Shown here one piece after another: positions 3,249-29,953 of a stretch of DNA of 32,000 nucleotides. Each line of letters opens with the position of its first letter. Position 1 is the stretch's first letter. Source of the DNA: Candidatus Omnitrophota bacterium (GTDB lineage: Bacteria > Omnitrophota > Gorgyraeia > Tantalellales > Tantalellaceae); assembly GCA_015231405.1 (NCBI GenBank), contig JADGBR010000027.1, positions 5,062-37,061 on the forward strand. Reading direction: 5' to 3'. The position numbers and the translations under genes are program-made. Below the pieces are notes generated by a model. That model was not told the DNA's origin, did not search any database, and worked only from the letters and a program-made list of their open reading frames with translations.

Positions 3249-4343
3249 ATGGGAAAAAAAGTCATGAAAATAGCCATTCTGACCGGCGGCGGGGATTGTC
3301 CCGGCCTTAACGCGGTCATCCGCGCGGTCACGAAAACGCTCATACTGGAAAACAACGCCGAAATCACGGGGATACTTGACGGGTACGACGGTCTTGTTCT
3401 CGAAGAATACCGTAAGCTCGGTTATAGCGATGTTTCCGGTATCCTGGCCATGGGCGGCACGATCCTGGGAACGTCCAATGTGGCCAACCCATATAAATAT
3501 CCCGTTAAAGACTGCGATAAGATAGTGTTCAAGGACCTTTCCAAAACCGTGATAAGGAACCTTAAAAAGCTCGGCGCCGAGTGCCTGGTATGCGTTGGCG
3601 GGGACGGTACTTTGAATATAGCTAATAGCCTCTTTAGGGACGGGGTGCCGGTAGTCGGGATACCTAAGACCATAGATAACGATATTTACGGTACTGACGT
3701 CTCTTTCGGTTTCGACACCGCGATGTCGATAGCCGCGGAAGGGATAGACAGGCTGGAGACCACGGGGCAGTCGCATCACAGGATAATGATACTTGAAGTG
3801 ATGGGTAGAAGGTCGGGGTGGCTGGCTCTTTATGCCGGAGTCGCCGGCGGGGCGGATATTGTCCTACTGCCAGAGATCCCATACGATATGGACGTGGTCG
3901 CTAAAGTCGTTAAAGCCAGGAACGGCATGGGAAAAAGGTTCAGCATGGTAGTAGTATCAGAAGGCGCGAAGCCTAAGGGCGGTGACGTCGTGGGCCGAAA
4001 AGTCCTGAATGACGGTTCTGACCCTATCAGGTTAGGCGGAATAGGGTTCGTCCTCGCCGACGACATAAGCAGGATGACGGGGCTTGAGACAAGGACCGTG
4101 GTTCTCGGGCATCTCATGCGGGGCGGCTCGCCAACCCCATTCGACAGGGTGCTGGGAACAAGGCTCGGCGTAAAAGCCGCCGGCCTCATCCAGAAGAAGA
4201 AATACGGTTACATGGTCGGGGTGAATGGCTCCGACCTGGTCGATGTGCCCCTTACGGTGGTAGCCAAGGGTTCGCGCCTCGTCCCGCCGGACCACGAACT
4301 CATAAAACAGGCCAAAAGCGTAGGGACCTCTTTCGGAGTGTAA
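3249..4343 (+). CDS. pfkA: ATP-dependent 6-phosphofructokinase
   Basis: The N-terminus MKIAILTGGGDCPGLNAVIRAV and the motifs GGDGT (a Gly here favours the ATP-dependent type), PKTIDNDI and MGRRSGWLA are all present. The RBS AGAGGAG lies 7 nt upstream of the ATG at 3249. Confidence 0.9.
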   Translation: MGKKVMKIAILTGGGDCPGLNAVIRAVTKTLILENNAEITGILDGYDGLVLEEYRKLGYSDVSGILAMGGTILGTSNVANPYKYPVKDCDKIVFKDLSKTVIRNLKKLGAECLVCVGGDGTLNIANSLFRDGVPVVGIPKTIDNDIYGTDVSFGFDTAMSIAAEGIDRLETTGQSHHRIMILEVMGRRSGWLALYAGVAGGADIVLLPEIPYDMDVVAKVVKARNGMGKRFSMVVVSEGAKPKGGDVVGRKVLNDGSDPIRLGGIGFVLADDISRMTGLETRTVVLGHLMRGGSPTPFDRVLGTRLGVKAAGLIQKKKYGYMVGVNGSDLVDVPLTVVAKGSRLVPPDHELIKQAKSVGTSFGV

Positions 4344-4406
4344 CAGTGTCAGGCCTCCCCATTGGACAAATTTTTGTCCAATGGGGAGGCCTGACACTGG
4401 TTTTTG
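4344..4406 (+). terminator. Rho-independent terminator formed by a family-A palindromic element
   Basis: A perfect ~27-nt-arm hairpin, CAGTGTCAGGCCTCCCCATTGGACAAA / TTTGTCCAATGGGGAGGCCTGACACTG (4344-4399), starts 1 nt after the pfkA stop and is followed by GTTTTTGTT. Confidence 0.7.
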
Positions 4407-4422
4407 TTGGTGGGTGTAACAA

Positions 4423-4488
4423 TTTCGATAATCGAAAAATTCTATACGATTATCGTTGACAAATAATTCGATATTGGGTAAAATCGAT
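4423..4488. promoter_or_regulatory. Array of TCGAT-centred palindromes overlapping the hspR-like promoter (candidate operator)
   Basis: The palindromes are TTTCGAT-A-ATCGAAA (4423-4437), ACGAT-T-ATCGT (4446-4456, touching the -35), TTCGATA (about 4467) and ATCGAT (4483-4488, just after the -10). Confidence 0.4.
4456..4484 (+). promoter_or_regulatory. Strong sigma70 consensus-like promoter
   Basis: TTGACA (4456-4461), an exactly 17-nt spacer, then TAAAAT (4479-4484), about 20 nt upstream of the hspR-like start. Confidence 0.6.
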
Positions 4489-4504
4489 AGTGGAGGCTCG
4501 GGAT

Positions 4505-4798
4505 ATGAGAACCTTGAGGGAAATAGATAATATTGACGATTTTACGCTGGATCCAAGGGAGCCTGTTTTTACGACCGGCGTGGTTTCCAGGCTGCTCAGT
4601 ATCCCGGTCTGGGTGTTGAAGCAGCTGGATAACGAGGGGATAGTGAGACCTCCGAGAAAAAGCGAGAACGTTTCACGATTGTATACTGTGGTACAGGTAA
4701 AGAAAGTGAAGCGATGTTGGTATTACCTGTCGCAGAAAGGAGTAAAAGTGAAAGCGCTTAAGATAATTCTGGAGATGGAGAAGAAGATGGAGGGCTAA
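4505..4798 (+). CDS. MerR-family heat-shock regulator, HspR-like
   Basis: The MerR-type HTH and wing (FTTGVVSRLLSIPVWVLKQLDNEGIVRPPRKSENVSRLYTVVQVKKVKRCWYYLSQKGVKVKALKIILEME) follow the HspR pattern, and the gene sits directly upstream of two sHSP genes. The track ORF starts at GTG 4490. The ATG at 4505, with GGAGG 7 nt upstream, is preferred. Confidence 0.7.
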   Translation: MRTLREIDNIDDFTLDPREPVFTTGVVSRLLSIPVWVLKQLDNEGIVRPPRKSENVSRLYTVVQVKKVKRCWYYLSQKGVKVKALKIILEMEKKMEG

Positions 4799-4816
4799 AA
4801 AAAATTTGCCTGTGGT

Positions 4817-4843
4817 TTAGCACTCGGCATGTGCGAGTGCCAA
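4817..4843. promoter_or_regulatory. CIRCE element (HrcA operator)
   Basis: TTAGCACTC-GGCATGTGC-GAGTGCCAA matches the consensus TTAGCACTC-N9-GAGTGCTAA with one mismatch. It lies 38 nt upstream of the first hsp20 start. Confidence 0.75.
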
Positions 4844-4880
4844 TAATAAAAAATATAAGTTCAAAGAAGGAGGTTATGTC

Positions 4881-5354
4881 ATGAAACTTGTTCCGTGGAG
4901 AGAAACGAGAAGGGATGCGTGCGACCCGTTCAGGGAGCTCGAGAACATCCAGAGGGAAATGAATCAGCTCTTTAATTTCTCGCTGGACAGGTGGGACGAA
5001 AAACCGTACGGGATACTGGAAAGCGCGTGGAGTCCTGCCATCGATGTGTTCGATTCAAAGGACAACATCTTGGTCAAAGCCGATATCCCGGGGATGAAAA
5101 AAGAGGACATAGAGGTATCGGTGCATGGCGATACTCTTTCCATCAAGGGCGAGAAGAAAGAGGAAAAAGAAGTGAAGGAGAAGGATTTTGTTAAGACGGA
5201 GAGGTTCTACGGATCGTTCACGAGGAGCCTACGCCTTCCGTCGGAGGTCGATTCCGAGAAAGTCACCGCGACGTATAAAGACGGTGTTCTCGAACTCACG
5301 CTCGCGAAAAGGGAAGAAACGAAGCCGAAACAGATAAAAATCGAAATAAAATAA
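4881..5354 (+). CDS. Hsp20/alpha-crystallin small heat-shock protein
   Basis: The alpha-crystallin domain is present (PAIDVFDSKDNILVKADIPGMKKEDIEVSVHGDTLSIKGEKK ... ERFYGSFTRSLRLPSEVDSEKVTATYKDGVLELTLAK). The RBS is GAAGGAGG. Confidence 0.9.
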   Translation: MKLVPWRETRRDACDPFRELENIQREMNQLFNFSLDRWDEKPYGILESAWSPAIDVFDSKDNILVKADIPGMKKEDIEVSVHGDTLSIKGEKKEEKEVKEKDFVKTERFYGSFTRSLRLPSEVDSEKVTATYKDGVLELTLAKREETKPKQIKIEIK

Positions 5355-5366
5355 GGAGGAACGAAT

Positions 5367-5717
5367 ATGGAGAACAAAAAAGACGCTCTAAGAACAATAG
5401 TCCCAGCCGTGAGCGTCAAGGACTCGGGTAAGGAGATAATACTCGAAGCCGAGATGCCCGGGCTCAAGAGGGAGGATATCGCCATAGAGATCGAAGGCGA
5501 CGGCCTCAAGATACACGGAAAGAAAAACAACTGTGCCGCTCCGGAAGGATACAGGACCATCTGGTCCGAAAGATGCGGTTACGAGTACTCTAGGTCCTTT
5601 ATACTCACCGAGGAGGTAAACAGGGAAAAGGTCCAGGCGAAATACGCCGACGGACTCCTCACCCTGACCATCCCGAAGTCCGAACACGCGGCGCCGAGGA
5701 AGATAGCGATACAGTAA
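5367..5717 (+). CDS. Hsp20/alpha-crystallin small heat-shock protein (short paralogue)
   Basis: The alpha-crystallin core is present (IILEAEMPGLKREDIAIEIEGDGLKIHGKK ... YSRSFILTEEVNREKVQAKYADGLLTLTIPK). The RBS is AAGGAGG. A 12-nt gap after the first hsp20 suggests co-transcription. Confidence 0.85.
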   Translation: MENKKDALRTIVPAVSVKDSGKEIILEAEMPGLKREDIAIEIEGDGLKIHGKKNNCAAPEGYRTIWSERCGYEYSRSFILTEEVNREKVQAKYADGLLTLTIPKSEHAAPRKIAIQ

Positions 5718-5719
5718 CA

Positions 5720-5781
5720 AATAGGTGTCAGGCCTCCCCATTAGACATTTTTTTGTCTAATGGGGAGGCCTGACACCTATT
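5720..5781 (+). terminator. Second family-A palindromic hairpin (probable terminator of the sHSP operon)
   Basis: AATAGGTGTCAGGCCTCCCCATTAGACA-TTTTTT-TGTCTAATGGGGAGGCCTGACACCTATT begins 3 nt after the stop codon. It shares the core GTGTCAGGCCTCCCCATTrGACA with 4344-4399. Confidence 0.6.
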
Positions 5782-5793
5782 CGAACCACGAAA

Positions 5794-5822
5794 TTGAACA
5801 GGTGACGTCCCTATTATATTCT
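5794..5822 (+). promoter_or_regulatory. Candidate promoter for the RyR/AAA+ - TIR-STAND cassette
   Basis: TTGAAC (5794-5799) is followed by TATATT (15-nt spacer) or TATTCT (17-nt spacer). It lies between the hairpin terminator and the strong RBS AAGGGGGAG of the 5855 gene. Confidence 0.3.
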
Positions 5823-5854
5823 GCTAAAATAACCCCTAACAAAAGGGGGAGATC

Positions 5855-8476
5855 ATGCCAGCCAAGCCAGGGTCCGAACAGATCAACTCAGTTGTAATAA
5901 CCGGAGACGTCGCGAAGGATACTTACATCTATGAAGGGGAGAGGATGACTTCCCGGAAGGATGACTTGAGGGCGACTAAAGTCCATAAGGAGCTTGGCGG
6001 GGCGGAGCTGGTCTATAAGGTCCTGGACGCGCTCAATAGAAAAGCGGTGCTGGGATGGAATGTTACGAACGCCGTCGGATGCCCGGAAGGAAAAGGCGGA
6101 CAATGTATAAGCTCGTACTCTCATTGGGATCCGTTCGAGGATAAAAAAAATAAAAAACAGTCGATATGGCGCATGAGTAAAGCCCTGGGTTACGGATTTG
6201 AGGACTCAGCGCTCGATCCCGCCGTTAAACCGTTCGGCGGGTTGGATGAAGTCAAAAAGAAAGGAACGCCCAAGATCCTCGTAATACAGGACGCCGGATA
6301 CAAATTCAGGGCGCTCGGGAGGAACGATAAGTGGCTGTTGGAAAAAAGCCTGGACTGGGTGGTCATAAAACTTTCAAGGCCGCTTGCCGCGGGAGAACTC
6401 TGGGAAGAACTTATAGGGAATTACGCCGATAAGCTGGTCGTTATAGTTTCCGTAGATGAATTTCGTCTCGAAGATATCAAGATAGCGAAAGGGTTTTCAT
6501 GGGAACAGACGATAGAGGACCTGAGATATGCCCTGGGCACGGAGCCGCGGTACGCTGCGCTGGCTAAATGCGGGCACCTGATCGTCAGTTTTGGCGCGGA
6601 CGGGGCTTTATGGCTTGATAACGGTTCCAGTAATGACACCAAGGCGAAGTTCCTCGGCGATACATCACGCGCGGAGAACGAATGGGCGAACGGTTTGAAA
6701 GGCGAGTCCTTTGGTTATATGTCGACCCTCACGGCGGCGGTTACATACGCATTAATGGATCATTACGGCAAAAAAGGTTCCCCGGATCTCGCGAAAGGGA
6801 TCGAACGCGGGTTATCGGCGATGCGTGATCTTTTGGAGAACGGCCATGGCGGTCTTGTAAAAGACGGAATGCCGTCCGGATTCCCCGTGGAGCGCTTAGC
6901 GGAAAAAATATTAAAAGCTGAACGGTTCCTCTCAAGTATCATCGTGCCTTGGATCCATCCGGACAATATAAAAGATCAGGGCGATTGGATGATAGCCGAA
7001 ATGATGCAGCGGTCGCCTTCGTTCAAAGGGTACGTTTCGCTGCATGGGCTCGCTACGCAGGTGGTCATGTACGGTCAGGGGGTGCTGAAACATATACCTC
7101 ACGCGACTTTCGGGAAATTGACGACCGCGGACCGGAAAGAGATAGAAACGCTTCGCCGGTTAAAAAGGTTCATGACCGAGTATAAAAATGACCCGGACGA
7201 GAAAAAACCTAAAGCTTTCGGCGTTTTTGGCCCCCCCGGCGCCGGTAAATCGTTCGGCGTTAAACAGATAGCGAAAGAAGTGCTTGGCGATGGTAACTGG
7301 CTTGAGTTCAATCTTTCGCAGTTCGAGAGCCTATCCGAACTGTACGGGGCATTCCACCAGGTGCGTGACAGCGTGCTGGGCGGATCGATCCCGGTGGTTT
7401 TCATGGACGAGTTCGATTCCCAGAGATACAAGTGGCTGCAGTACCTAATATCGCCAATGCAGGACGGCATTTTTCAGGAAGGGCAGCTTACGCATACGGT
7501 CGGGAAATGCATTTTCATTTTCGCCGGCGCGACGAGCTATACTTACGAGTCGTTCGGGACTTTTAAGAAAACTCCGGATGGTATCGAAGCTGAGAAGGAT
7601 TTCATCCTGAAAAAAGGCCCTGATTTTAAAAGCCGGCTGGATACCTATTATAACGTGCTCGGCCCGAATAGGAGGATAATCGATCCCGAGACCGGTGTGC
7701 CGGATCCCGCGGATATCTCATGCCCGTTAAGGAGGGCCATTTTCATATCCTCGAAAATAAAATACAGCCCGGGTCTTCCCGCGCCGATAGATCCTGGGCT
7801 TGTGAACGCGCTCCTCAGGATATCGAAATATAAGCACGGCGCGCGCTCTTTGGATAAACTTCTTTGCATCCTCGGGTCGAAAGATAAAACTTCGCTTTTA
7901 AGGTCGTCCCTTCCGGCCGACGCGCAACTGGGGATGTATGTCGATCCAGCCGAATTTAACGCGCTTTTACTTGAGCCTCACAAGATCCTACGCGAACTTC
8001 CTATAGAGGACCTGGCCCGCGCGATCCATACGGGCTGGTCTTTGCTATGCGATAAAAAAGGCTTAAAAAAAGCCGCGCAATACGACAAAGAGTACAACGC
8101 GCTTGACGCTGACGGGAAGGAGGTCAATCGCGCAGCGGCCAGGAGGATACAGGAGATACTGGCTACGGTGAACCTGAAGATCGAAAAACCCGGAGCGCCA
8201 GGGAAAGCCGGCAAAGATCACGACGCGATCATAACCGGGCATCTTGAGCATCATTCGCCGCTTCTTGCGGAGCTTGAGCATAACGGGTGGATGAACCATA
8301 TGTTCAAGTCCGGGTGGAAATACGCGGATATCAGGAACGACGCGAAGAAAGAGCATGATCAGTTGAAACCTTATAACGAACTGCCGGAAGATCAAAAGGA
8401 CAAAGACAGGGATTCGATAAATAATTATCCCGCTGTGCTTAAAACATCCGGGTACAGCATAAACTGGATAAAATGA
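5855..8476 (+). CDS. Multidomain ATPase: N-terminal ribokinase/PfkB-like(?) domain, classical AAA+ ATPase, C-terminal RyR-domain region
   Basis: - AAA+ domain: Walker A FGVFGPPGAGKSFG, Walker B VVFMDEFDS, sensor-1-like IFIFAGATS.
- C-terminus: a clear RyR (PF02026-type) repeat, LAELEHNGWMNHMFKSGWKYADIRNDAKKEHDQLKPYNELPEDQKDKDRDSINNYPAVLKTSGYSI. It is preceded by a degenerate one, LARAIHTGWSLLCDKKG...YNALDADGKEVNRAAARRIQEILATVNLKI.
- N-terminal ~320 aa: a PfkB-like strand/helix pattern (VVITGDVAKDTYIY, GGAELVYKVLDAL, ILVIQDAGY, KLVVIVSVDEFRL, GHLIVSFGADGALWLDNG, KGESFGYMSTLTAAV). This part is a fold guess only. Confidence 0.75.
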   Translation: MPAKPGSEQINSVVITGDVAKDTYIYEGERMTSRKDDLRATKVHKELGGAELVYKVLDALNRKAVLGWNVTNAVGCPEGKGGQCISSYSHWDPFEDKKNKKQSIWRMSKALGYGFEDSALDPAVKPFGGLDEVKKKGTPKILVIQDAGYKFRALGRNDKWLLEKSLDWVVIKLSRPLAAGELWEELIGNYADKLVVIVSVDEFRLEDIKIAKGFSWEQTIEDLRYALGTEPRYAALAKCGHLIVSFGADGALWLDNGSSNDTKAKFLGDTSRAENEWANGLKGESFGYMSTLTAAVTYALMDHYGKKGSPDLAKGIERGLSAMRDLLENGHGGLVKDGMPSGFPVERLAEKILKAERFLSSIIVPWIHPDNIKDQGDWMIAEMMQRSPSFKGYVSLHGLATQVVMYGQGVLKHIPHATFGKLTTADRKEIETLRRLKRFMTEYKNDPDEKKPKAFGVFGPPGAGKSFGVKQIAKEVLGDGNWLEFNLSQFESLSELYGAFHQVRDSVLGGSIPVVFMDEFDSQRYKWLQYLISPMQDGIFQEGQLTHTVGKCIFIFAGATSYTYESFGTFKKTPDGIEAEKDFILKKGPDFKSRLDTYYNVLGPNRRIIDPETGVPDPADISCPLRRAIFISSKIKYSPGLPAPIDPGLVNALLRISKYKHGARSLDKLLCILGSKDKTSLLRSSLPADAQLGMYVDPAEFNALLLEPHKILRELPIEDLARAIHTGWSLLCDKKGLKKAAQYDKEYNALDADGKEVNRAAARRIQEILATVNLKIEKPGAPGKAGKDHDAIITGHLEHHSPLLAELEHNGWMNHMFKSGWKYADIRNDAKKEHDQLKPYNELPEDQKDKDRDSINNYPAVLKTSGYSINWIK

Positions 8477-9417
8477 CGTCCGCAGGCCGTCATTCCGGGC
8501 CCCTCCTAGCGAGGGCGAAGCGATCTATGAAGAGATATAAAACAAGCTCGGGGTTTCAGGGTATTCTATTCCTTTTATTTGGGGCATTGATCCTGAATGG
8601 ATATCCTGTATCCGCATCTGCAGCCGATAGCGTTTATTTTAAACCAAGTGGATCTCAGGTCATCGAAAGAGGCAAAGACGTCGAGTTTAGCTACACCCTT
8701 ACCGTCGACAATGCGGCCGTTGATCCTTCCGAGATCGGGGAAAGTCCCCTGCTATACACTCATGGCGCTAATGAGCTTATACCCGGTCTTGAGAAAGGGC
8801 TTCAGGGGATGAAGGTCGGAGAGAGGAAGAGGATAGTCGTCGGTCCGGAAGAAGGGTTCGGGGTTTTCGATCCCGGGCTTATCGTTGAGGTTCCCTTGAG
8901 AGAACTTCCGAAGGATATAATCCCGGAGATCGGCATCTCAGTTGACATGGAGGAGCCCAACGGCGACAGGGTCCCGGCAACTGTCCGCGAAGTGAAAGAA
9001 AAGACGGTGGTACTCGATCAGAACCACCCGTATGCCGGGAAGACCCTGGCATTCGATGTTACGGTCACTTCGATAAAGCAAGGCGACGTGAATAGAACAT
9101 ATCATATCCCCGGTATCTACTCCAGCCTGGATTATATTAATGAGTCCGGTGACCTTGTCGGCATGGAGGTCCTGATATTCCCGGGAGGTCCGGGTCGGGA
9201 TCATTCCGCGCTCGTCCAAATAGCCGAAGGAGAGGCCCCTTACGCGGCGCTTGTTCCCGTAAAGGTCCACGGTTCCCGCATAAGGTTCACAATGCCCAAG
9301 AACGGCCCGGTAGGCCCCGAACATTATGCCGGTACTATTAAAGATGACGCGCTGGTAATTGAGTATATAAAAGGCGGCGAGGAAATACTTAAACGCGGAA
9401 AAAGTTATTGGGAATGA
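8473..9417 (+). CDS. Exported FKBP-type peptidyl-prolyl cis-trans isomerase with an unrecognised ~110-aa C-terminal domain
   Basis: The FKBP core carries a flap insert (YTHGANELIPGLEKGLQGMKVGERKRIVVGPEEGFG ... LDQNHPYAGKTLAFDVTVTSIK). There is a signal-peptide-like segment, MKRYKTSSGFQGILFLLFGALILNGYPVSASA. The start is either the ATG at 8473 (an ATGA overlap with the upstream stop) or the ATG at 8527. Confidence 0.8.
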   Translation: MTSAGRHSGPLLARAKRSMKRYKTSSGFQGILFLLFGALILNGYPVSASAADSVYFKPSGSQVIERGKDVEFSYTLTVDNAAVDPSEIGESPLLYTHGANELIPGLEKGLQGMKVGERKRIVVGPEEGFGVFDPGLIVEVPLRELPKDIIPEIGISVDMEEPNGDRVPATVREVKEKTVVLDQNHPYAGKTLAFDVTVTSIKQGDVNRTYHIPGIYSSLDYINESGDLVGMEVLIFPGGPGRDHSALVQIAEGEAPYAALVPVKVHGSRIRFTMPKNGPVGPEHYAGTIKDDALVIEYIKGGEEILKRGKSYWE

Positions 9418-9443
9418 ACAAAACAACCTCCGGAGAATAATAA

Positions 9444-9728
9444 ATGGCTGATTTCACCGAAGAGATGCTTGAGGAACTATCTAACGCCGCCCATCAGGTC
9501 TGGATGGAGGGGAAGATCAGGGACGGTTGGAAGTATGGCCCTCTGATCGACAAAACTAATAAGATCCACAGCTGTCTCGTCCCTTACGATAAATTGAGCG
9601 AATCGGATAAGGAATCCGACCGCGACATGGTCCGCGGTATCCCGAGAATACTGGCCTTAGCCGGATACGAGATGATACCGAGAAGTGACCGTGGCGCAGA
9701 CCGTCATTGCGAGGAGCGAACGAAGTGA
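9444..9728 (+). CDS. Standalone RyR-domain protein (94 aa)
   Basis: LSNAAHQVWMEGKIRDGWKYGPLIDKTNKIHSCLVPYDKLSESDKESDRDMVRGIPRILALAGYEMI matches the bacterial RyR-domain pattern and the C-terminal repeat of the 873-aa protein. The RBS is GGAG. The last 8 codons and the stop lie inside a family-B repeat. Confidence 0.8.
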   Translation: MADFTEEMLEELSNAAHQVWMEGKIRDGWKYGPLIDKTNKIHSCLVPYDKLSESDKESDRDMVRGIPRILALAGYEMIPRSDRGADRHCEERTK

Positions 9729-9744
9729 GCGACGAAGCAATCCC
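9702..9744. repeat. Family-B repeat, solo half-element
   Basis: CGTCATTGCGAGGAGCGAACGAAGTGAGCGACGAAGCAATCCC shares the GTCATTGCGAG...GAAGCAATC blocks with 24593-24670 and 25750-25840. It lacks the complementary right arm. Confidence 0.7.
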
Positions 9745-9759
9745 GTAAAGGAACTTTAA

Positions 9760-12700
9760 ATGAACCGCTCGGTCAAGCTATTCCTCTCCTACGCCCGCGG
9801 CGATGATGAGCCGTTCGTCAAACGCCTGTATGGCGACTTGACGAGCGCGGGGTTCGAAGTCTGGTATGACCGCGTGTCTATGCCTTCCCGCCAGCTCACT
9901 TTTCATACAGAGATAAGAGAAGCGGTCAACTCGGCGGACAGGTTACTCCTGGTCGTTGGCCCCAAGGCGGTCGAATCGGATTACGTCGAACAGGAATGGC
10001 GCTGGGCGTTGTTGCAGGATAAATGTTTAAACCCGATCCTTAGGCTTAACGGGCGCGCCGCGGACAAGAGCGTAATAGACGGGTATAAGTTAATACCCGA
10101 AGAACTGGTTATCCTTCATTCGGAGGATTTTCGTGACGACACGAAGTATGACGCGGCGCTCGCGAACCTCAAGAGGCAGCTTTCCGAGCCGATCCCTCCG
10201 TTTGGAAAGCTCGTAGCCGTCCCCGAACTTCCGGCGCATTTCAAAGCCCAGCCTGAAAGGCTCAAGAAATTACGCGAACTATTGCTCATCGACCTGAATA
10301 ACCCAACGGTAGTGACCGGCGCGGCCGCGCGCGTGGGTCTTGAGGGAATGGGCGGCATAGGTAAAAGTGTTCTTGCGTCCGCTCTTGCCCGTAACCCTGA
10401 GATACGCAGGGTCTTTTCCGACGGCATATTTTGGATAGGTTTCGGGCAGAAACCCGATATAGTCTCTCTCCAGCGCAGGATAGTTACCGAACTATGCGGT
10501 GACGCTCTTTTTAACGAGATAGAGATAGGCAAACAGCGGATGACCGATCTACTCAAGAGCCGCGCCGCGCTCATTATTATCGACGACGTCTGGGACAGGA
10601 AACACGCCGACGCGTTCAATGTCCTGGGCCCCAGGTGTAAACTGCTCTTAACGAGCCGTGATTCGGGCCTTGTAACTTCATTCGCCGGCAACGGCTACCA
10701 GGTCCAGCTTCTGACCGAGGCCGAATCGCTTGAACTGTTGGCTACGACATCCGGTTTTACATCTCAAACCTTACCAAAGATAGCCTCCGACATCGTGAAA
10801 GAATGCCAGCGACTTCCCCTGGCCCTCGCCCTTTGCGGCGGCATGGCCCGTAAAGGCCACGCCTGGGAAAATATCCACAAAGCCTTAAAGAACGCCCGCC
10901 TCGAGGTCATAGCCGACAGGCACGAAGCCGAAGAACAGCACACGAGCCTCTGGCGAACGATGGAAGTCAGCGTTCAGGTATTATCAAAAGAAGAGAAAGA
11001 GAGATTTGTCGAGCTTGCCGTCTTCCGTGAAGACATCGAGATCCCTCTGGAGGCGTTGATAACTCTTTGGACGAGGACAGGCGATATGGATGAGTTCTCC
11101 GCGGCGGAGACTATCATTTCATTCAAGGAAAGGTCACTTATCCAGGTCAACACAAGAAAACTTCCCGATGGCACGACACAAAAGATAGCGACAATCCATG
11201 ATCTAATCCGCGATTACGCCGTCCGTCTCGCGAAACAGAAAGAAGGAGGAATAGCGGCTCTTCACGCCCAAATGCTGGACGCTTACAAAACCAAATGCCC
11301 GAAAGCTGAATGGCACACCGGCCCCAATGACGGTTACTATTTCGAGAATTTGAGGCATCATTTCATAGTTGCCGGGGAGATCGATAAATGCGTCGATCTC
11401 TTTACCGGGCTACGGTGGATAGAAGCCAAATGCAAATACGGTTTAACATTCGACCTGGAGAATGACTTTCGCGATCTTCTCCGGGCATTGCCTGAGGCGG
11501 CGGCACAAATAGAAGAAGAGCGAAAACGGGAAATGCCTATCGCCAGATGGGCGGATGAAATGGTCGCGTATTCAAAAGAGTGGAGCCTCCGGGGGGTAAA
11601 AGGGTCGACTGGCCAAAACCCTGAGCCAAAACTTCCCGAACCTGTCCCGGCATGCGGATTATCGACAGACGAAGAGATGAACGCTGAGATAGGCCGTCTC
11701 ATAGCGTCCCCGACGCGGGTTGACAGGGTAAAAGCATTCTCGAACTTTGTCGCTACCCAGCTATATCCTTTAAGTAAATACGCGAGCCACCCCGGTTTTG
11801 TCATCCAGCAGGCGTCCAATTCCGCTCCGGATGGCCCTGTTCATAGGACGGCGTCTGATCTTCTCACGGGGATCTGTATTCCATTTATCTTGCGAGTGTG
11901 GAAAAAACATGACCGTTACGAGCCTAAACAGGCGCTTTTAATGGCGCTCGAGGGGCATAACGATATCATTAGAAGCGTTTCTGTCACTCCGGACCATAGA
12001 AGAGCGGTCTCCGGAGGCAGCGATAAGACGCTCCGGGTCTGGGACCTGGAAAGCGGGGTATGTTTGCATTCTCTTCACGGCCACGACGATATTATAAGGA
12101 GTGCAGCTATCACTCCTGATGGTGTAAGGGCCGTCACGGGAAGTTGGGATAAGACTTTACGGGTATGGGATATCGAGAACGGCGTATGTTCGTATGTTCT
12201 CCGGGGGCATACTGACGATGTGAGGTGCGTCGCGATCACTCCTTGCGGGAAAAAAGCCGTTTCAGGGAGCCGTGACGGGACACTCAGGGTATGGGACCTG
12301 GAAAACGGTTCTTGTATTTCGGCGCTTAAAAAGATCGATGGCCATATTGAAAGCGTCGCCATCACCCCTTGCGGAAGAAAGGCGGTATCGGGAAGCAGCG
12401 ACAAGAAGCTACGGGTATGGGACCTTGAGACCGGAGCCTGTTCGAGCACATTCACGGGACATAACAATAATATAGTTAGCGTTGCCGTTACGCCTGACTG
12501 CAAAGTGGCGGTATCGGGGGATTGGAACGGGGAGATCCGGGTATGGGACATAGAGAAAGGGATATGTTCGCGTTCTCTCAAAGGGCATAGCGATATCGCG
12601 AGAAGCGTCGCCATAACCGCCGACGGTAAGCGGGCGGTTTCAGGAAGCCGCGACAAGACGTTACGGCTATGGGATCTGAGCAATGGCGGGCTTTTACGCG

Positions 12701-13689
12701 TTATCTCCGGTGATAGCGACGATATGAGGAGCATATCTATCGTTCCGGACGGGAGGATGGCCGTCACCGCGGGGAGCGATAAGAAACTTCGGTTATGGGA
12801 CATAGCAAGCGTCTCATTCCGGAAGGCTCCTGATACCCATCGCGATGACGTGAGGGGTGTTTCTATCACTCCTGACGGCAGAACAGCCGTTTCGGGGAGT
12901 AAGGATAAGACGATCAGGGTATGGGACATAGAGAGCGGAACATGCTTACGGACCCTCACCGGGCACAGCGATATAGTAAGATGCGTCGCCGTCGCTCCGG
13001 ATGGGAAGACCGCGTTCTCGGGAGGCGGCGATAGGGTATTACGCGTATGGGACATAGAGAAGGGAGTGTTTTTACGGGCTCTCCCGGGACATACAGGCAG
13101 CGTGAAATGTATTTCGTTCTCTCCCTGCGGGAAAAAGGCGATATCGGCATGCGGTGATTCCACTATAAGGATATGGGACATAGAGAACTGGGTGTGTTTA
13201 CGCGTGCTTGAAGGGCATAGCGATGATGTTAGAAGCGTTTCGATCACTACTTCCGGGAAACATGCCGTCTCGGGCAGTAAAGATAAGACTATCAGGGTCT
13301 GGGATATAGAGAGCGGGGCCTGTCTCCGCGTGATCGAAGCCCATACGGACATTGTAAGAAGCGTCGCCATTACTCCTGACGGTCGAAGAGCCGTTTCCGG
13401 GAGCAGTGACAAGACGCTCAGGGTATGGGACATAGAAAGCGGATCATGCATCCGCGTCATTGAAGGGCACAGCGATTATGTCATGAACGTCGCTGTTACA
13501 TCCGACGGAAGGAAGGCTGTCTCTATAGGCTGGGATGAAACGGTACGCCTGTGGGACATAGAGACCGGCAGGTGCCTGTCGATCTTCAGCTTCCCGGAAC
13601 CGGCGACCGCCCTGGCATTGAAGCCCGATGATAGCGGAGCCATCGTCGGGACACATAACGGACAACTTCTTTTTCTTGATTATAAATGA
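9760..13689 (+). CDS. TIR - NB-ARC (STAND NTPase) - 14x WD40 protein (Apaf-1/NLR-like)
   Basis: - TIR: KLFLSYARGDDEPFVKRLYGDLTSAGFEVWYDRVSM...LLLVVGPKAVESDYVEQEW.
- NB-ARC: P-loop GMGGIGKS, kinase-2 LIIIDDVWD, LLLTSRD, GLPL-like RLPLALALCGG, MHD-like TIHDLIRDYA.
- WD40: fourteen 42-aa repeats of the type GH-x-D-x-[VI]-R-S-V-A-I-T-P-D-G-x-x-A-V-S-G-S-x-D-K-T-L-R-V-W-D. Confidence 0.92.
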   Translation: MNRSVKLFLSYARGDDEPFVKRLYGDLTSAGFEVWYDRVSMPSRQLTFHTEIREAVNSADRLLLVVGPKAVESDYVEQEWRWALLQDKCLNPILRLNGRAADKSVIDGYKLIPEELVILHSEDFRDDTKYDAALANLKRQLSEPIPPFGKLVAVPELPAHFKAQPERLKKLRELLLIDLNNPTVVTGAAARVGLEGMGGIGKSVLASALARNPEIRRVFSDGIFWIGFGQKPDIVSLQRRIVTELCGDALFNEIEIGKQRMTDLLKSRAALIIIDDVWDRKHADAFNVLGPRCKLLLTSRDSGLVTSFAGNGYQVQLLTEAESLELLATTSGFTSQTLPKIASDIVKECQRLPLALALCGGMARKGHAWENIHKALKNARLEVIADRHEAEEQHTSLWRTMEVSVQVLSKEEKERFVELAVFREDIEIPLEALITLWTRTGDMDEFSAAETIISFKERSLIQVNTRKLPDGTTQKIATIHDLIRDYAVRLAKQKEGGIAALHAQMLDAYKTKCPKAEWHTGPNDGYYFENLRHHFIVAGEIDKCVDLFTGLRWIEAKCKYGLTFDLENDFRDLLRALPEAAAQIEEERKREMPIARWADEMVAYSKEWSLRGVKGSTGQNPEPKLPEPVPACGLSTDEEMNAEIGRLIASPTRVDRVKAFSNFVATQLYPLSKYASHPGFVIQQASNSAPDGPVHRTASDLLTGICIPFILRVWKKHDRYEPKQALLMALEGHNDIIRSVSVTPDHRRAVSGGSDKTLRVWDLESGVCLHSLHGHDDIIRSAAITPDGVRAVTGSWDKTLRVWDIENGVCSYVLRGHTDDVRCVAITPCGKKAVSGSRDGTLRVWDLENGSCISALKKIDGHIESVAITPCGRKAVSGSSDKKLRVWDLETGACSSTFTGHNNNIVSVAVTPDCKVAVSGDWNGEIRVWDIEKGICSRSLKGHSDIARSVAITADGKRAVSGSRDKTLRLWDLSNGGLLRVISGDSDDMRSISIVPDGRMAVTAGSDKKLRLWDIASVSFRKAPDTHRDDVRGVSITPDGRTAVSGSKDKTIRVWDIESGTCLRTLTGHSDIVRCVAVAPDGKTAFSGGGDRVLRVWDIEKGVFLRALPGHTGSVKCISFSPCGKKAISACGDSTIRIWDIENWVCLRVLEGHSDDVRSVSITTSGKHAVSGSKDKTIRVWDIESGACLRVIEAHTDIVRSVAITPDGRRAVSGSSDKTLRVWDIESGSCIRVIEGHSDYVMNVAVTSDGRKAVSIGWDETVRLWDIETGRCLSIFSFPEPATALALKPDDSGAIVGTHNGQLLFLDYK
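11947..13686 (+). repeat. Tandem 126-nt (42-codon) WD40 coding repeats, 14 units
   Basis: The period is visible at both DNA and protein level, for example GATAAGAC(G/T)(C/A)T(C/A)(C/A)GGGT(C/A)TGGGA recurs. Units 8, 11 and 12 are especially similar to one another. Confidence 0.9.
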
Positions 13690-13837: not shown

Positions 13838-14617
13838 ATGAAGAACTCAAATGACGAGTCTTTCGCCATGAGCGGGGCCGTGGTATGCGACAAATGCGGA
13901 CGGGATCATCCCGTGGATCTCTGGGCAATAATAGACGCCGAGGCGAGGCCGGATCTTTTGGCTAAAATGGCCGTTAATACGCTGAACGTAGTAACATGCC
14001 CGCATTGTGAGGGAAGAGGTCATATCGGCGGGCCTTTATTCGTTATTTTCCCAAAAGTGGAACCGCCCAAACCATTCACCCGGACGGTCGGTGTGGAATG
14101 CGGGAAAGACAAGTATTGGATGACTGATGAGGATGCCGTGAACGCCTTGTTCGGGGCGCTTGTCGATGAACGCGGGGAAGAGTGGGTCGACAAGCATTTG
14201 AGCCCGCCTTTTTCCATGACGAGGCCCGATGTTTTAATAAAGACTCTGCTGGACGCATGGAAACCCGTAGCGTCTCCCGATAACGGCGCCGAGAAACTCC
14301 GGCAAAGCGCCTCGGACCGTATCGCCGGGATGAAAGCGAGAAGCGCCAATAACGCTCTCGACCCGTTTTATACCGACACTTTTACCGGATACAATATGGC
14401 CGCGTGGTCCGAGCATGGCTACGCCCTGGCCTTAAAACTCGTAGAACTCTCACCGTCCCGCGGCGATGAAACTGCGCGGAATTACGCTGACCGTATTATC
14501 GGGCATCTGAAAGCGATAAAGAAGGAATATTCCGACGACCCGGCCGACCAGGACGGCGGCGGCGCCGGAGCTTTTCAAAGCGCGATAATGGCCGTCGATG
14601 AACTGGCTGGGAAATGA
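13838..14617 (+). CDS. CpXC-type zinc-ribbon domain protein with a helical C-terminal region
   Basis: The N-terminus VVCDKCGRDHPVDLWAIIDAEARPDLLAKMAVNTLNVVTCPHCEGRGHIGGPLFVIF has two CxxC pairs (the second is CPHC) separated by about 35 aa, as in the CpXC family. The RBS is GAAGGAA. Confidence 0.6.
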   Translation: MKNSNDESFAMSGAVVCDKCGRDHPVDLWAIIDAEARPDLLAKMAVNTLNVVTCPHCEGRGHIGGPLFVIFPKVEPPKPFTRTVGVECGKDKYWMTDEDAVNALFGALVDERGEEWVDKHLSPPFSMTRPDVLIKTLLDAWKPVASPDNGAEKLRQSASDRIAGMKARSANNALDPFYTDTFTGYNMAAWSEHGYALALKLVELSPSRGDETARNYADRIIGHLKAIKKEYSDDPADQDGGGAGAFQSAIMAVDELAGK

Positions 14618-14686: not shown

Positions 14687-17600
14687 TTAGCTCCAGGGTA
14701 TATCCACGGGAAGGGAAGGCTGGTCTTTCCAAATGGTCAATTGATCGAGTTCGGGTGTGTCTTCGCGGTTGTTCAGGGCCTTGTAGAGAAGCGTAACGAA
14801 GTTGAGGTCCCGAGCCGATATACGGGGACGAAGATGGTCGAGGAAGTCGCCGATATCCCAGAATTGAGTGATATTGGCTTTGTCTCCAGGAGGGTCTCCC
14901 TGTCTAAGAGCCCGGATCCGGCCTATGTATGGCTCCATGGGCTCGTTTTGGAGTAACGCCGCGGCGGATCTCACGAAGAGTATCCGTTGACTTGTGATAT
15001 CGTGTCCCGAAGCCAGTTTGATAGTCCAGGCGCGTGATAACAGCTCACGGGCTTCGGCGTATCCTTCCTTCATGACGAGCACTATCGAGAGGTTGTTCAT
15101 CCGGTGCGCTATTTTTGGGTCGGAGGGTTCACGGGAGGACTCGTCATGGCTCAATGCTTCGCGTAATAGCCTCTCGGCTTCGTCGAGCCGGCCGATTTTC
15201 CGGGCGCTTAAGGCTTCGTTATTCAGGGCTACCGCCCGGCCCCAGCTTGCTTCGGTCGTCGACATTTTTATGTCTCCGGGGACATCGGCACTATCAGATA
15301 TGCCGAGGATCGTGGAATTAAGCTGGGAAGGATCGCCGGTCTCGAGATATTTGGCAAGGTCAGGGTGAAATCTGTATTCCTGCTTGAACCATGTAGCAAG
15401 GGTCATACAGTAAATGATCTGGCGTAGCGGTCCGAAGAGCCGGGATCCCGTTAAGGACCTTTGGATGGTGGGGACGATGTGTTTTTGGAACGCGTTATTG
15501 AGGCGGTCTATCGATCCTTCCGGAGCGATTCGATGAGTGCGCGGTAAATGCCATTCCCAGAACACATCAAGAGGCGCCTTTGTGACGGACGCGTGATTCT
15601 CTCCGGGAGTGATGAGGTCGGATAATCTGCCTTCCGGAGTACCTGTGTATACCTGAGCACAGGCCGGAGAGATAAAAATATCGATCGGGAACTCATGTGG
15701 ATCCGTTCCGGCGAAGGTCGCAGCCGGGTTAACATCGCTCCTGAAGGCCTTTCCGGCGGGATTGTCCCCGGAAAGCGCGGCCGAGACGAATTCGCTTAAA
15801 ACCTGTCCCTGTTCGGCCAGCATTGACCCGAGTTTTGATCCGCGAAGCTGCGGAGGCATTTCCGAATCGGACGCCGCCCATTGATCTTCCTCGTTCACCG
15901 AGATAGCGGCCAGAAATATATCCACAAGTGACCGTGTGTCTTTTTGTCTATTACCGCTCCAGTCCTTATCCGATCCGGTATCAATGATAAAATTCCAGTT
16001 CAGTTTATCGCTGTCCTGTATCGATACGCCGGTTATCATAGGCGGATGCCAGGGTTCCGGGTCTTTCGCGGTCAGTTCATCGGAAATTTCCCGCGCGTGT
16101 GTGGGCGAAGAGAGTACGGCCGGGTGAGTATCGGAGAATTTAGCCCGGGCTTCGAGGATCCGGAGTTTTCTGCGGAGGCGCCGTTCGGGCTGTTTTTTTA
16201 GTTCGTCGGTACCCCACTGGGGCCTATTCACCAGGGTCAATTTCGCGTATTGGCGTTTAGCTTCGGTCAGTTTATGGACGCTAAGGAGGAATTCAGAGAA
16301 ACGTTCAAGCACCGTTTCCTTGAACGGATGCTCGTCAGGAAATACGGACAAACGTTTTATGGCGTCCTCAAAATAACGTTCGGCGCCGTTAAGGTCGCCT
16401 TTTTTAGTCAACAGTTCCGCTAATTGGGTGCGGCAGATGATGGCTAATTGAGGTTTGACGGTGTGTTTCCCGTCCTCGGTCGAAAGTTCCACGGCTTTCC
16501 GGAGCAGTTTTTCACCTTCAACAAGGTCTCCTGCCGATGTGACCAATATCGACAGATTGTTCAGCGGTTTAGCGAAATCGCTTCGCCTGACGGTGGCGTG
16601 ATGCGACTCATAGATGGCGATGGCGCGGCGGTAGCAGTTCTCCGCTTCGTTCTTTTCGCCCAGATCACTATGAGCCAGCCCGAGGTAGTTGAGCGCGCTT
16701 GCTGCGTTCGGGGTGTCTTTCCCGTCAGAGCTCTCGAATATCTCGAACGCGCGGCGGAAAGCCTCGAGGGCTTCTTTTGGCCGTTTGAGCGCGCGAAGCG
16801 ACTCTCCGCGGTTGATGTGCTTGTTGGCGGTATCGGTGGTCCCTTCAAAACCAGGTGAACGGGAGATAACATTTAGTGTTGACTCTTCCATGGCAAGAGA
16901 TAGAACGTGGAGGCCTTTGCCGAACAAAAGAGTGCCGATGGAGGTCATTAGCGCCGGGTTAGACGGCAGTTTGTCGTCGGAAACGAAGGATCCGATCAGG
17001 AACTCGGCGTGAGGGCGGAGCACATCCCAGACGGCCCATGTCCTGGGACTTTCCGATGTTTCCTCCGGGGCGTATTTCGAGACGAGCGCCTGTACGCGTC
17101 CGTGCCAGAGTGGCAGGAGCTCCGAACTCATATGGTTCCTCATTATACGTTGTTCCATCCGATGGATGCTGAAAAACCCGTCGCCGCGGGATATCAGCGA
17201 ATATCGTCCGAGTTCTGCCAGGGCGTCGGGAACGGTCTGGCCGGTCCTGGTCTCGCCGGACCCTTCGCACCATAATGTCACGAGCGCCAACGTTTCGTTA
17301 GGGCAGGCCTCGAACATCGCTATCGGGATCGGGTCGGGAGCGAGAAATGCCGATCCCCTTAGTATTGCCTTGGCTTCGGGGGAAAGCCTGTCAAAAGAGA
17401 GGAAAAAAGTTGTGGCAACGGTCTTGATCAGGGCTTTGCGGGCCGCTTTAGCCTCGGGCGTTGAGGGCCCTCTGTCATCCTTGTCAAGTTCGGTCTCGTA
17501 TTCGATAGCGGTGTGATCGTGATAGGCTAGCAGTCGTTCAAAATGACGTTCAAAATCGTCCAGATACGCCGCGAATCCCATATGATGATGTTGCATATAG

Positions 17601-18718: not shown

Positions 18719-18859
18719 ATATTGCGATAAATATACCACCGTAGGGAATGCGGGGTCAACAAGATACTCCTCTATCCTGTATATTATCGTTGATTCGTTC
18801 GGGAAATATGCTATTTTAGTGTTGTTGAGATGCTGCTTAAAGCCATCATAAGGAGTGAT

Positions 18860-20095
18860 ATGGGAATAAGGCCGAAACATATTGTTATAATTGCCGTGAT
18901 ATTGGTCTTCGCCGCCTTTGCCGGGTACGCTGGCATGGTGTGGAGCTATATGTACCGCGGGCACATGCTGGTCCAGAAGGGAGACTACGATGGGGTTGTG
19001 AAGGCGCTTTCCAAGGCTGTCAGGCTGGCGCCGAATAACCATTTAACGTACTGGGGCAGAGGTGACGCTTTACTTGCGCAAGGAATGTATATGGAGGCGG
19101 CCCGGGATTATGAAAAGGTCCTTGAGTTATATAGATCTTTCAGGCCATCGGTAAAAAAGAACTTTCTCGATAAAATAGCGCTTTCAAAAACCGGCGGTAA
19201 CGGTATCGTAAGGGAATATTATCCCGGTGGAGAGGTAAGAAGGGAGTTGACGTTCGTCAATGGCCGGCAGAACGGGATATCCAGGATGTATTTTCCGTCG
19301 GGAAAGGTCATGTCCGAGGTAGAGTTCAGGGATAATGCGATCGACGGTGCTTTCGAAAGATATTTTGAGGACGGCAAAACTGAAATGGAAGGTAGTTTTC
19401 TCGCCGGGAAAATGAACGGCGCGGCTAAAATGTACTATCCGGGAGGCGTATTGAAGTCCGAAGGGAATTTCGATGCCGGAGAGATGGAAGGGGTCTTCAA
19501 AGCTTATTACAGGAACGGTAACCTAAGAAGCGTATCGGATTATAAGGACGATCTCCCGAACGGCACACACAAGTCATATTATCAAAGCGGAGCTTTTAAG
19601 GGTGAAATGAGCGCCAGGAACGGCAACGCCGACGGCGTATCTTCCGAATATCACGAGAACGGCGAACTTGTTTATAAATGGAATTATTCGGACGGCGCGT
19701 GGGACCCGGCGAATATCGTCGTCTTCGATAAGAAGGAGAAGCTTGTAACGACTTATTTTAAAAGCGGCGGCATTGAATCGGAAATACCGTATATAGGCGG
19801 CAAGATCGAGGGTAAGGTCATGGGATACTACGAGGGTGGGGTGCTTAGAGACGAGTCTCTGTATAAGGAAGGCAGGCCCGACGGCGTCGGGATGACATAC
19901 GATGAGGACGGGAAGTTATACAGTAAGTCCTTCTATCGGGGCGGTGTTTGTGACGGTGAATGGTTTTATTATTCGGAAACCGGAACGGCCAAGTCAAAGG
20001 TATCGTTCAAGAACGGCAAATTCGTGAAACTTGAAACATTTGATCCTTCGGGCAGGATAACTAAGACAATTAAGCCTCCGGAGAATATTCAGTAA
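18860..20095 (+). CDS. Membrane-anchored TPR + MORN-variant (YwqK-like) repeat protein
   Basis: There is one N-terminal TM helix (IVIIAVILVFAAFAGYAGMVW) and a TPR (GDYDGVVKALSKAVRLAPNNHLTYWGRGDALLAQGMYMEAARDYEKVLEL). About ten repeats of the G-x-x-x-x-Y-Y-x-x-G type follow (REYYPGGEVRRELTFVNGRQNGISRMYFPSGKV...). The ATG at 18860 is preferred, with AAGGAG 4-5 nt upstream. The track start is 18830. Confidence 0.75.
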   Translation: MGIRPKHIVIIAVILVFAAFAGYAGMVWSYMYRGHMLVQKGDYDGVVKALSKAVRLAPNNHLTYWGRGDALLAQGMYMEAARDYEKVLELYRSFRPSVKKNFLDKIALSKTGGNGIVREYYPGGEVRRELTFVNGRQNGISRMYFPSGKVMSEVEFRDNAIDGAFERYFEDGKTEMEGSFLAGKMNGAAKMYYPGGVLKSEGNFDAGEMEGVFKAYYRNGNLRSVSDYKDDLPNGTHKSYYQSGAFKGEMSARNGNADGVSSEYHENGELVYKWNYSDGAWDPANIVVFDKKEKLVTTYFKSGGIESEIPYIGGKIEGKVMGYYEGGVLRDESLYKEGRPDGVGMTYDEDGKLYSKSFYRGGVCDGEWFYYSETGTAKSKVSFKNGKFVKLETFDPSGRITKTIKPPENIQ

Positions 20096-22205: not shown

Positions 22206-22206
22206 A

Positions 22207-24570: not shown

Positions 24571-24592
24571 ACGGTTCGGTTCAAAACGGAGC

Positions 24593-24670
24593 CGTCATTG
24601 CGAGCGAAGCGAAGCAATCTCTATAAGTAATGGGGATTGATTCGTTCGCTTTAGCGCCCCCGCAATGACG
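24593..24670. repeat. Family-B palindromic element (full copy)
   Basis: CGTCATTGCGAGCGAAGCGAAGCAATC...GGATTGATTCGTTCGCTTTAGCGCCCCCGCAATGACG has complementary termini (CGTCATTGCG / CGCAATGACG) and complementary inner blocks (GAAGCAATC / GATTGaTTC). Confidence 0.75.
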
Positions 24671-29580: not shown

Positions 29581-29656
29581 CTGTCATCCCCAGCAAACTG
29601 ATAACTGTCATCCCCGCTAACGGAATACGCTGTCATCCCCGCGAAAGCGGGGATCA
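29581..29656. repeat. Three direct CTGTCATCCCC repeats ending in a family-C hairpin
   Basis: CTGTCATCCCC occurs at 29581, 29605 and 29630 (24-25 nt spacing). The third continues as TGTCATCCCCGCGAAAGCGGGGATC, containing the hairpin ATCCCCGC-GAAA-GCGGGGAT. Confidence 0.8.
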
Positions 29657-29946: not shown

Positions 29947-29953
29947 TTTTATT

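Follow-up and report, generated by a model that had tools for sequence, protein, structure and literature searches.

A RyR-domain AAA+ protein and a RyR mini-protein encoded beside TIR-STAND genes: a candidate Thoeris-like signaling module in a Candidatus Omnitrophota bacterium

Four consecutive genes on the forward strand, here termed A to D, lie within a 32,000-nucleotide (nt) stretch of contig JADGBR010000027.1 from a Candidatus Omnitrophota bacterium, which was analyzed at its full length and is referred to below as the window. A encodes a PfkB-like domain joined to an AAA+ module and a RyR module, B an FKBP, C a free RyR protein, and D a STAND protein with an N-terminal TIR domain. The first-pass annotation of the window had placed four plus-strand open reading frames (ORFs) here, in agreement with the ORF list, and had regarded them as one unit. 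Our analysis of the domains, homologs and genomic neighborhoods of these proteins reveals that A is linked to TIR genes in many bacteria, and suggests that A, C and a TIR protein may act together in immune signaling. The genes and their domains are as follows:

5855-8476, plus strand: gene A, 873 amino acids (aa); PfkB/ribokinase-like, AAA+ and tandem RyR domains; conserved core of the proposed system
5855-7189, plus strand: A residues 1-445, PfkB/ribokinase-fold domain according to an AlphaFold2 model and Foldseek
7190-7954, plus strand: A residues ~446-700, AAA+ module; Walker A, GPPGAGKS (460-466); Walker B, VVFMDEFD (514-521)
7973-8203, plus strand: A residues ~707-783, first RyR repeat, degenerate; of the four ligand/catalytic residues of the phage protein RyDEP (see below) only H725 and W728 are kept
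8204-8473, plus strand: A residues 784-873, second RyR repeat; H809, W812, H834 and D851 correspond to RyDEP H75, W78, H100 and D117
8473-9417, plus strand: gene B, 314 aa, SlyD-like FKBP
9444-9728, plus strand: gene C, 94 aa, single-repeat RyR mini-protein
9760-13689, plus strand: gene D, 1309 aa, TIR-NB-ARC-APAF1_C-WD40 STAND protein, Apaf-1-like
9781-10050, plus strand: D residues 8-97, TIR_2 (Pfam E = 3e-18)
10333-10977, plus strand: D residues 192-406, NB-ARC (E = 2e-31)
11260-11499, plus strand: D residues 501-580, APAF1_C
~11923-13686, plus strand: WD40 region of D, 13 Pfam matches

Domain anatomy of A, C and D

The N-terminal region of A had been called ribokinase-like, which holds at the level of the fold but has no counterpart at the level of sequence: residues 1-445 gave no match in profile searches of Pfam (including PF00294), NCBIfam or the PDB. 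An AlphaFold2 model of the domain (m76e0ace294f0; pLDDT 78, pTM 0.82), compared with the PDB by Foldseek, matched PfkB-family kinases in all of its top 50 hits, with E-values from 1e-10 to 1e-7, a probability of 1.0 and target-normalized TM-scores of ~0.47-0.58. A GG dipeptide in this domain (G48 G49) is invariant in the family, and the position of the PfkB motif DTxGAGD is divergent, reading DAxGAEGEW in the family consensus and, more divergent still, DTSRAENEW in the window protein. The AAA+ module that follows was recognized by Pfam (PF00004, residues 457-522, 26.1 bits, cut-off 21.2), and its GPPGAGKS and DEFD motifs are invariant in the family alignment, so that this part of the earlier description is sound. 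The bpMoxR model scored 24.7 bits on A, under its cut-off of 27, and the cassette includes no vWA gene.

At the C-terminus of A, Pfam identified a RyR domain (residues 793-870; 59.5 bits, cut-off 27.4, E = 3.9e-16), as had been claimed, but there are two repeats and not one. The first was matched by a hidden Markov model at E = 3e-17, a value to be read with the fact that the model had included that very sequence; in another A homolog (L085:5338-7929) the first repeat was picked up independently with C as the query. Foldseek matches of the full-length AlphaFold2 model of A (pLDDT 82, pTM 0.81) comprise Clp/Hsp100 AAA+ proteins, PfkB kinases and RyR Repeat12, and the modeled C-terminus superposes on the whole two-repeat Repeat12 domain of RyR3 and Bt-hRyR (6uhi, 6uhh, 9l9b) over ~173-206 columns. 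The matched RyR3 structures were solved with ATP, ADP or dantrolene. Judging from the model and the alignments, A ends in a tandem Repeat12-like module with a degenerate first repeat. The family of A comprises more than 600 full-length homologs with 38-67% identity and is found in at least 11 phyla; the hosts include Omnitrophota, Acidobacteriota, Planctomycetota, Verrucomicrobiota, Bacteroidota and Ignavibacteria, as well as Actinomycetota, Alphaproteobacteria, Desulfobacterota, KSB1 and Eisenbacteria.

The identification of C as a free RyR protein of 94 aa stands on a Pfam match of 67.8 bits (cut-off 27.4, E = 1e-18) and on matches to RyR structures in the PDB with E-values down to 1e-32; the protein is predicted to homodimerize. 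Phage proteins of the same family (PF02026) have been reported either to cleave 2'/3' cyclic ADP-ribose (2'/3'cADPR), as does RyDEP of phage DyoEdafos, or to sequester it with nanomolar affinity, 2'/3'cADPR being the signals of TIR/Thoeris immunity (PMC13232231, May 2026 preprint). The ligand/catalytic residues of RyDEP are H75, W78, H100 and D117; they are shared with Repeat12 of animal RyRs and are also kept in RyDEP homologs that merely sequester the signal (PMC13232231). With RyDEP taken as gene 78 of MN234187.1 and residue equivalence derived from sequence alignment, all four are present in C (H17, W20, H42 and D59) and in the second repeat of A (positions listed above). Six other mini-RyRs also align with all four residues, and across the A family these are invariant or nearly so. 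The first-pass annotation had proposed the ribokinase-like domain as the sensor of a TIR-derived product; given the ligands of the RyR family (PMC13232231) and the retention of the four residues, RyR is the better candidate. In this region of the phage genome (L081, DyoEdafos 3807-6557) the RyDEP gene lies between two others, one with the annotation phosphoribosyl pyrophosphate transferase and one with that of nicotinate ribosyltransferase, consistent with the context of NAD+ reconstitution described for it (PMC13232231).

D was correctly described as an Apaf-1-like protein with TIR, NB-ARC and WD40 domains, to which Pfam adds APAF1_C. Its translation contains the P-loop GMGGIGKS and the motifs LIIIDDVWD, RLPLALAL and IHDLIRD. 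The count of 14 WD40 blades is compatible with the 13 Pfam matches, and a 126-nt periodicity in the DNA fits 13-14 blades. Within the TIR domain, E79 occupies the catalytic position and aligns with the conserved Glu of the bacterial TIR structure 7uxr.

Neighborhoods and fusions of the A family

Scanning GTDB with each species represented by a single genome yielded 350 relatives of A, from which 80 loci with flanking sequence (designated L) were taken by similarity to A alone; the counts given here are over 79 loci, whose genes were crude six-frame ORFs searched with iterated TIR_2 and DUF4062 profiles. A gene for TIR or for the TIR-like DUF4062 lies within 3 kb of A in 40 of the 79. Among neighbors of at least 300 aa the assignment was confirmed by Pfam for 46 of 46 (32 with TIR_2 and 14 with DUF4062), and about half of these 46 also have STAND NTPase domains (AAA_16, NACHT, nSTAND1) and TPR or WD40 repeats. 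TIR genes number 0.146 per kb up to 2 kb from A and 0.038 per kb between 2 and 9 kb, a 3.9-fold difference (binomial p = 2e-8), the distance control being internal to loci that are themselves surrounded by TIR-rich islands and are not phylogenetically independent. Nearby TIR genes share the strand of A in 30 of 41 cases; the gap to A has a median of 274 nt and does not exceed 400 nt in 25. The TIR partners range from small ThsB-like proteins (L047 and L021, gaps of 10-36 nt) to large STANDs, a variety that is the shuffling expected for a modular partnership.

RyR genes of other kinds recur as well. A mini-RyR gene adjoins A in 12 of the 79 loci, which bears out the proposed tie between the two, and larger proteins that end in a RyR domain occur in 14, e.g. 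proteins with RelA_SpoT, LSDAT (SLOG) and RyR domains or with transmembrane (TM), TrkA_N (RCK) and RyR domains (L002:4972-7527 and L007:8453-10213, respectively); the TM-TrkA_N-RyR architecture recalls a ligand-gated channel regulator. The second commonest neighbors, found in 20 of the 79 loci, are SLOG-SLATT genes, whose products are membrane proteins of the SLOG-like + SLATT/DUF4231 type, a predicted class of nucleotide-sensing effectors. Around the closest relative of the window A (L001, 67% identity) the order is DUF4062-STAND-TPR, A, mini-RyR and again DUF4062-STAND-TPR. In the cultured actinomycete Intrasporangium oryzae NRRL B-24470 (L047, 8651-14485) a TIR gene (416 aa, 8651-9901) is followed after 10 nt by A (9911-12676) and then by a SLATT-like gene (from 12609), all on the same strand; this compact TIR-A-SLATT arrangement offers a practical experimental model. 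Three loci contain TIR_2-PFK fusions one to three genes downstream of A (L046:12811-15021, L055:14473-16827 and L061:8037-10256), an odd combination in view of the PfkB sugar-kinase fold of A itself.

Analysis of domain fusions revealed three ways in which the components are joined. One A homolog (P0047) continues into an HTH and a C-terminal TIR_2 domain; a protein encoded directly after A and a mini-RyR (L077:4574-6097) combines TIR_2 with an AAA module of the A type; and a protein 50% identical to D (P0140) has the architecture TIR_2-NB-ARC-APAF1_C-RyR, in which RyR takes the slot usually held by the WD40 sensor. Together with the enrichment of TIR neighbors close to A relative to more distant positions, these fusions substantiate the suggested tie of the RyR/AAA+ gene to TIR/STAND genes. 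The occurrence of RyR as a C-terminal addition to varied N-terminal modules, and its position in P0140, point to the behavior of a sensor domain, comparable to SLOG, SAVED and CARF.

From the side of D, the reciprocal test was confined to a small sample of seven homologs on longer contigs, and a metagenome scan with D as the single query returned one locus of 2.3 kb. One of the seven (P0127, 52% identical to D) adjoins a full A homolog and a second TIR-NB-ARC-WD40 gene, another is the fusion P0140, and the remaining five have no RyR nearby; close D-like genes are also found beside A in L034 and L073. Since only two of the seven sampled D homologs have a RyR partner or fusion, the partnership with A/RyR is real but facultative for TIR-STAND proteins.

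Gene B and other features of the window

The gaps of 26 and 31 nt between the genes and of 148 nt 3' of D were all reproduced, and B can be accepted as an FKBP on the basis of its Pfam FKBP_C match, the match to NCBIfam PRK15095 being under the cut-off. The ATGA overlap of A and B at 8473-8476 is present in the DNA, but may not be the working start of B. The true start is probably ATG 8527, which is preceded at a distance of ~11 nt by GAGGG and from which translation would yield a classic, predicted Sec signal peptide (MKRYKTSSGFQGILFLLFGALILNGYPVSASA/AD). Because no homolog of B was found near A in any of the 79 loci and B looks secreted, it probably is a passenger confined to this lineage and stands outside the conserved system. 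We therefore rejected the FKBP as a component, and the notion of a four-gene cassette including it has to be abandoned, as the gene is also missing from the locus of the closest relative, L001. For the same reasons, the likeness to the association of FKBP12 with RyR in animals is probably a coincidence.

Neither of the two signals proposed to delimit the cassette upstream proved specific to it. The hairpin that had been read as a terminator and boundary is a real palindrome, but it is not unique in the window, and it was dropped as a delimiter:

5720-5781, no strand: palindrome with 28-nt perfect arms, upstream of A; a copy at 4344-4399 is 92% identical

The second copy identifies it as a repeated element rather than a cassette boundary; it looks like a REP-like terminator or a palindromic element. 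The two copies of ~55 nt (GTGTCAGGCCTCCCCATT.GACA...) lie on either side of MerR-Hsp20-Hsp20 heat-shock genes. Terminator-like matches in the window are no commoner than in shuffled sequence. At 5802-5830, the promoter-like site has 9 matching positions out of 12, and sites of this quality number 9 in the window versus 8.8 expected in shuffled sequence, which gives the claimed promoter no support.

Downstream of the cassette and convergent with it lies a second TIR-STAND gene:

14687-19042, minus strand: gene F, 1451 aa; TIR_2-NB-ARC-DUF7779-TPR STAND protein with a long C-terminal extension

F-like STAND genes are found beside A homologs in L002, L025, L026 and L050, and F is a possible second partner of A. 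Its annotated start overlaps a plus-strand TPR/MORN ORF (18830-20095) by 213 nt, and for this reason the true start is probably further in. Between D and F a CpXC zinc-ribbon protein of 259 aa is encoded (13838-14617, plus strand); with a homolog in only one of the 79 loci (L076) it was rejected as a component.

Further along, positions 21273-25732 (plus strand) encode a MoxR-like AAA_5 ATPase (310 aa) followed by proteins of 787 and 355 aa that have no Pfam match. Homologs of this trio occur near A homologs in L078, and the ATPase alone also in L057; the 355-aa protein includes a region common to TIR-STAND or STAND proteins in L026, L018 and L002. The trio may be a further conflict system within this island. 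An ordinary PFK gene is located at 3249-4343, and a pair of 58-nt inverted repeats (29631-29688 and 29922-29979; 78% complementary, 233 nt enclosed) may be the remnant of a small mobile element.

Proposed function and comparison with known systems

We infer the ligand, the direction of signaling and the activity of the output as follows. The conserved unit would consist of A, C and a TIR protein (D in this window, and possibly F) and would form a Thoeris-like nucleotide-signaling immune module with RyR as the receptor of the signal, a reading to which we assign a probability of roughly 45%. The WD40 propellers of D would detect an invader cue, and oligomerization through NB-ARC would gather the TIR domains, which, once assembled, would use NAD+ to make a signal derived from ADP-ribose, such as 2'/3'cADPR; the catalytic-position Glu (E79) retained in the TIR domain of D is in keeping with this reading. 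The C-terminal tandem RyR module of A would bind this signal, and binding would drive assembly of the AAA+ ring and its ATPase activity. The ring would then switch on the PfkB-like output, which would either consume ATP as a kinase of a ribose-containing metabolite or act by remodeling, and growth arrest would follow. The homodimer of C would form the same two-fold pocket, and would sequester or hydrolyze the signal, thereby setting a threshold or ending the response.

Several observations weigh against this reading. The prevailing view takes TIR domains on STAND proteins for effectors that deplete NAD+ and not for generators of a signal, and the Thoeris survey left out those on Avs-type STANDs for that reason (Yirmiya et al. 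2025 preprint). A is without a recognizable toxic domain, is unusually conserved for a defense gene (35-67% identity across phyla), and has a divergent PfkB catalytic motif, notably in the window protein. Repeat12 of RyR3 binds plain ATP and ADP according to the titles of the PDB entries, which would allow a common adenine nucleotide as the ligand. The density of TIR genes is raised also at 2-9 kb from A, so that defense islands account for part of the linkage signal; a recognizable partner is missing within the available sequence in 21 of the 79 A loci; and there is the low share of D homologs (two of the seven sampled) that come with a RyR partner or fusion.

A somewhat unlikely alternative is that A and C are a host off-switch or recovery device: RyR would bind the cADPR isomers and cleave them to linear ADP-ribose (ADPR), and the PfkB-like kinase would phosphorylate ADPR or ribose for NAD+ salvage or detoxification, so that TIR signaling would be terminated in much the way that ring nucleases of the host terminate type III CRISPR signaling. 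The catalytic dyad of RyDEP (His, Asp) is kept in both C and A, A joins RyR to a sugar- or nucleoside-kinase fold, and its strong conservation would suit an enzyme with a fixed small-molecule substrate; moreover, A accompanies effectors that seem complete in themselves, SLOG-SLATT and TIR-STAND. The phage precedent is similar, as RyDEP is encoded between genes for an ADPR-acting pyrophosphokinase-like protein and a nicotinamide/nicotinate phosphoribosyltransferase, and acts jointly with both in rebuilding NAD+ (PMC13232231). The same four residues are, however, found in RyDEP homologs that only sequester the signal, and their conservation is no predictor of catalysis, while the degenerate PfkB motif speaks against a kinase and an AAA+ ring would have no obvious use in a simple hydrolase-kinase.

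It is unlikely that A acts upstream of the TIR protein instead, as a nucleotide-gated AAA+ platform or chaperone that activates a TIR NADase effector, with RyR or PfkB as the sensor of the cell's adenine nucleotides or of some other cue. Induced proximity is what activates TIR NADases, and the fusions P0047 and L077, with TIR on A or on an A-type AAA module, would place TIR on an AAA+ ring; the binding of ATP and ADP by RyR3 Repeat12 and the weak bpMoxR match of A also fit such a role. Against it, STAND partners such as D bring their own sensor and oligomerization modules, the bpMoxR score is under the cut-off with the vWA partner absent, and RyR in the sensor slot of P0140 fits the reading of a signal and not chaperoning by A. 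We regard it as improbable that only clustering in defense islands is seen, with A (with or without C) being an independent system or a stress/housekeeping ATPase in islands rich in TIR-STAND genes. The window does contain a second TIR-STAND gene and a MoxR-like trio, the genes upstream are Hsp20 and MerR, most of the sampled D homologs stand alone, and the raised TIR density at 2-9 kb and the 21 loci without a partner agree with such a view. It is opposed by the 3.9-fold excess within 2 kb, the same-strand bias and the short gaps, by the three independent kinds of fusion, and by the demonstrated affinity of the RyR family for TIR products (PMC13232231).

Comparison with known systems agrees with the first-pass annotation in that the genes upstream of D matched no named defense system, and we found no prior description of them in the accessible literature. 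PADLOC models gave no significant match for A, B or C: B and C had no match at all, and A matched only mad8 (E = 0.0019, 15.8 bits), over the P-loop at residues 446-480. The Thoeris effector models in PADLOC (ThsA and others) did not match, NCBIfam has no model for A or C, and D matches the PADLOC ThsB models over its TIR domain only.

Thoeris (types I-XI, Yirmiya et al. 2025 preprint) resembles the present arrangement in having a TIR protein with a catalytic Glu, here identified by alignment, beside a gene for a domain of a 2'/3'cADPR-binding family. In several loci, among them L047 and L021, A is paired with a small ThsB-like TIR protein across gaps of 10-36 nt, and SLATT, which is predicted to be a class of Thoeris effectors, recurs at A loci. 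Whereas the known systems combine a ThsB TIR protein with SIR2-SLOG or Macro-TM, the sensor here would be RyR/Repeat12 and not SLOG or Macro; the candidate effector of PfkB-like and AAA+ domains, like RyR, is not named in the accessible part of the same preprint, a complete STAND/NLR-like protein often serves as TIR partner, and there is an additional mini-RyR gene. With RyDEP and the RyR sponges of phages (PMC13232231) the bacterial proteins share PF02026 and the four residues, and C is a small single-repeat protein that is expected to dimerize like RyDEP; unlike these, the genes described here are host-encoded beside TIR genes, the domain of A is a tandem repeat fused to AAA+ and PfkB-like modules, and the expected role is the reading or tuning of the cell's own signal and not immune evasion.

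The combination of effector, NB-ARC (with the helical APAF1_C) and WD40 domains in D is that of Avs/AVAST and other NLR-like STANDs and of Apaf-1, although no PADLOC Avs model matches D at E <= 0.01. As in plant TIR-NLRs with EDS1 and helper NLRs, the TIR domain of D could produce a small molecule for detection by a different protein. The bacterial TIR-STANDs known so far are handled as systems of one gene, whereas here a conserved accessory pair (A and C) goes with a subset of them. The MoxR-vWA ternary systems (Kaur et al. 2020, PMC7159879) likewise associate an AAA+ ATPase with conflict genes rich in STANDs and repeats, and A has a weak bpMoxR match; RyR, PfkB and FKBP are unmentioned in that work, and a MoxR-vWA-beta-propeller ternary system was rejected here on the sub-threshold score (24.7 versus 27) and the absence of vWA. 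Among the accessible papers of the Aravind laboratory on conflict systems, the RyR domain is not mentioned in such a context. Repeat12 of animal RyRs is homologous in fold and sequence, as indicated by the E-values of C and the superposition of the modeled C-terminus of A, and shares the residues of the adenine-nucleotide pocket (PMC13232231), but it is part of a calcium channel of 5000 aa, while the bacterial domain resides on a soluble ATPase or in a free protein of 94 aa.

A broader scenario, which we consider doubtful and offer tentatively, is that TIR-NLRs such as D are signal generators like the plant TIR-NLRs, and that their cADPR-type product is read by prokaryotic Repeat12 domains placed on several outputs, i.e. 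PfkB-AAA+ proteins, RCK-type membrane proteins, RelA/SpoT-SLOG proteins and, in a feed-forward manner, other TIR-STANDs, with the mini-RyR as the buffer of the host. Animal Repeat12 would then descend from an immune receptor of cADPR isomers. If this is true, the old debate about the action of cADPR on RyR channels would gain a concrete, structure-based hypothesis.

The link between RyR and TIR signals has been known only since 2026, as phage counter-defense (PMC13232231). The present analysis adds the host side, as bacterial hosts in at least 11 phyla also couple RyR domains with TIR genes, and suggests a form of TIR-based nucleotide signaling in which the receptor domain and the output protein (PfkB-like plus AAA+) are new and a buffer may be encoded by the host. 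Such a buffer, comparable to the ring nucleases of CRISPR systems, may thereby be revealed, and some bacterial TIR-STANDs may, like plant TIR-NLRs, generate a signal and not simply deplete NAD+. A and the mini-RyR thus suggest an undescribed way of reading or switching off TIR-made immune signals.

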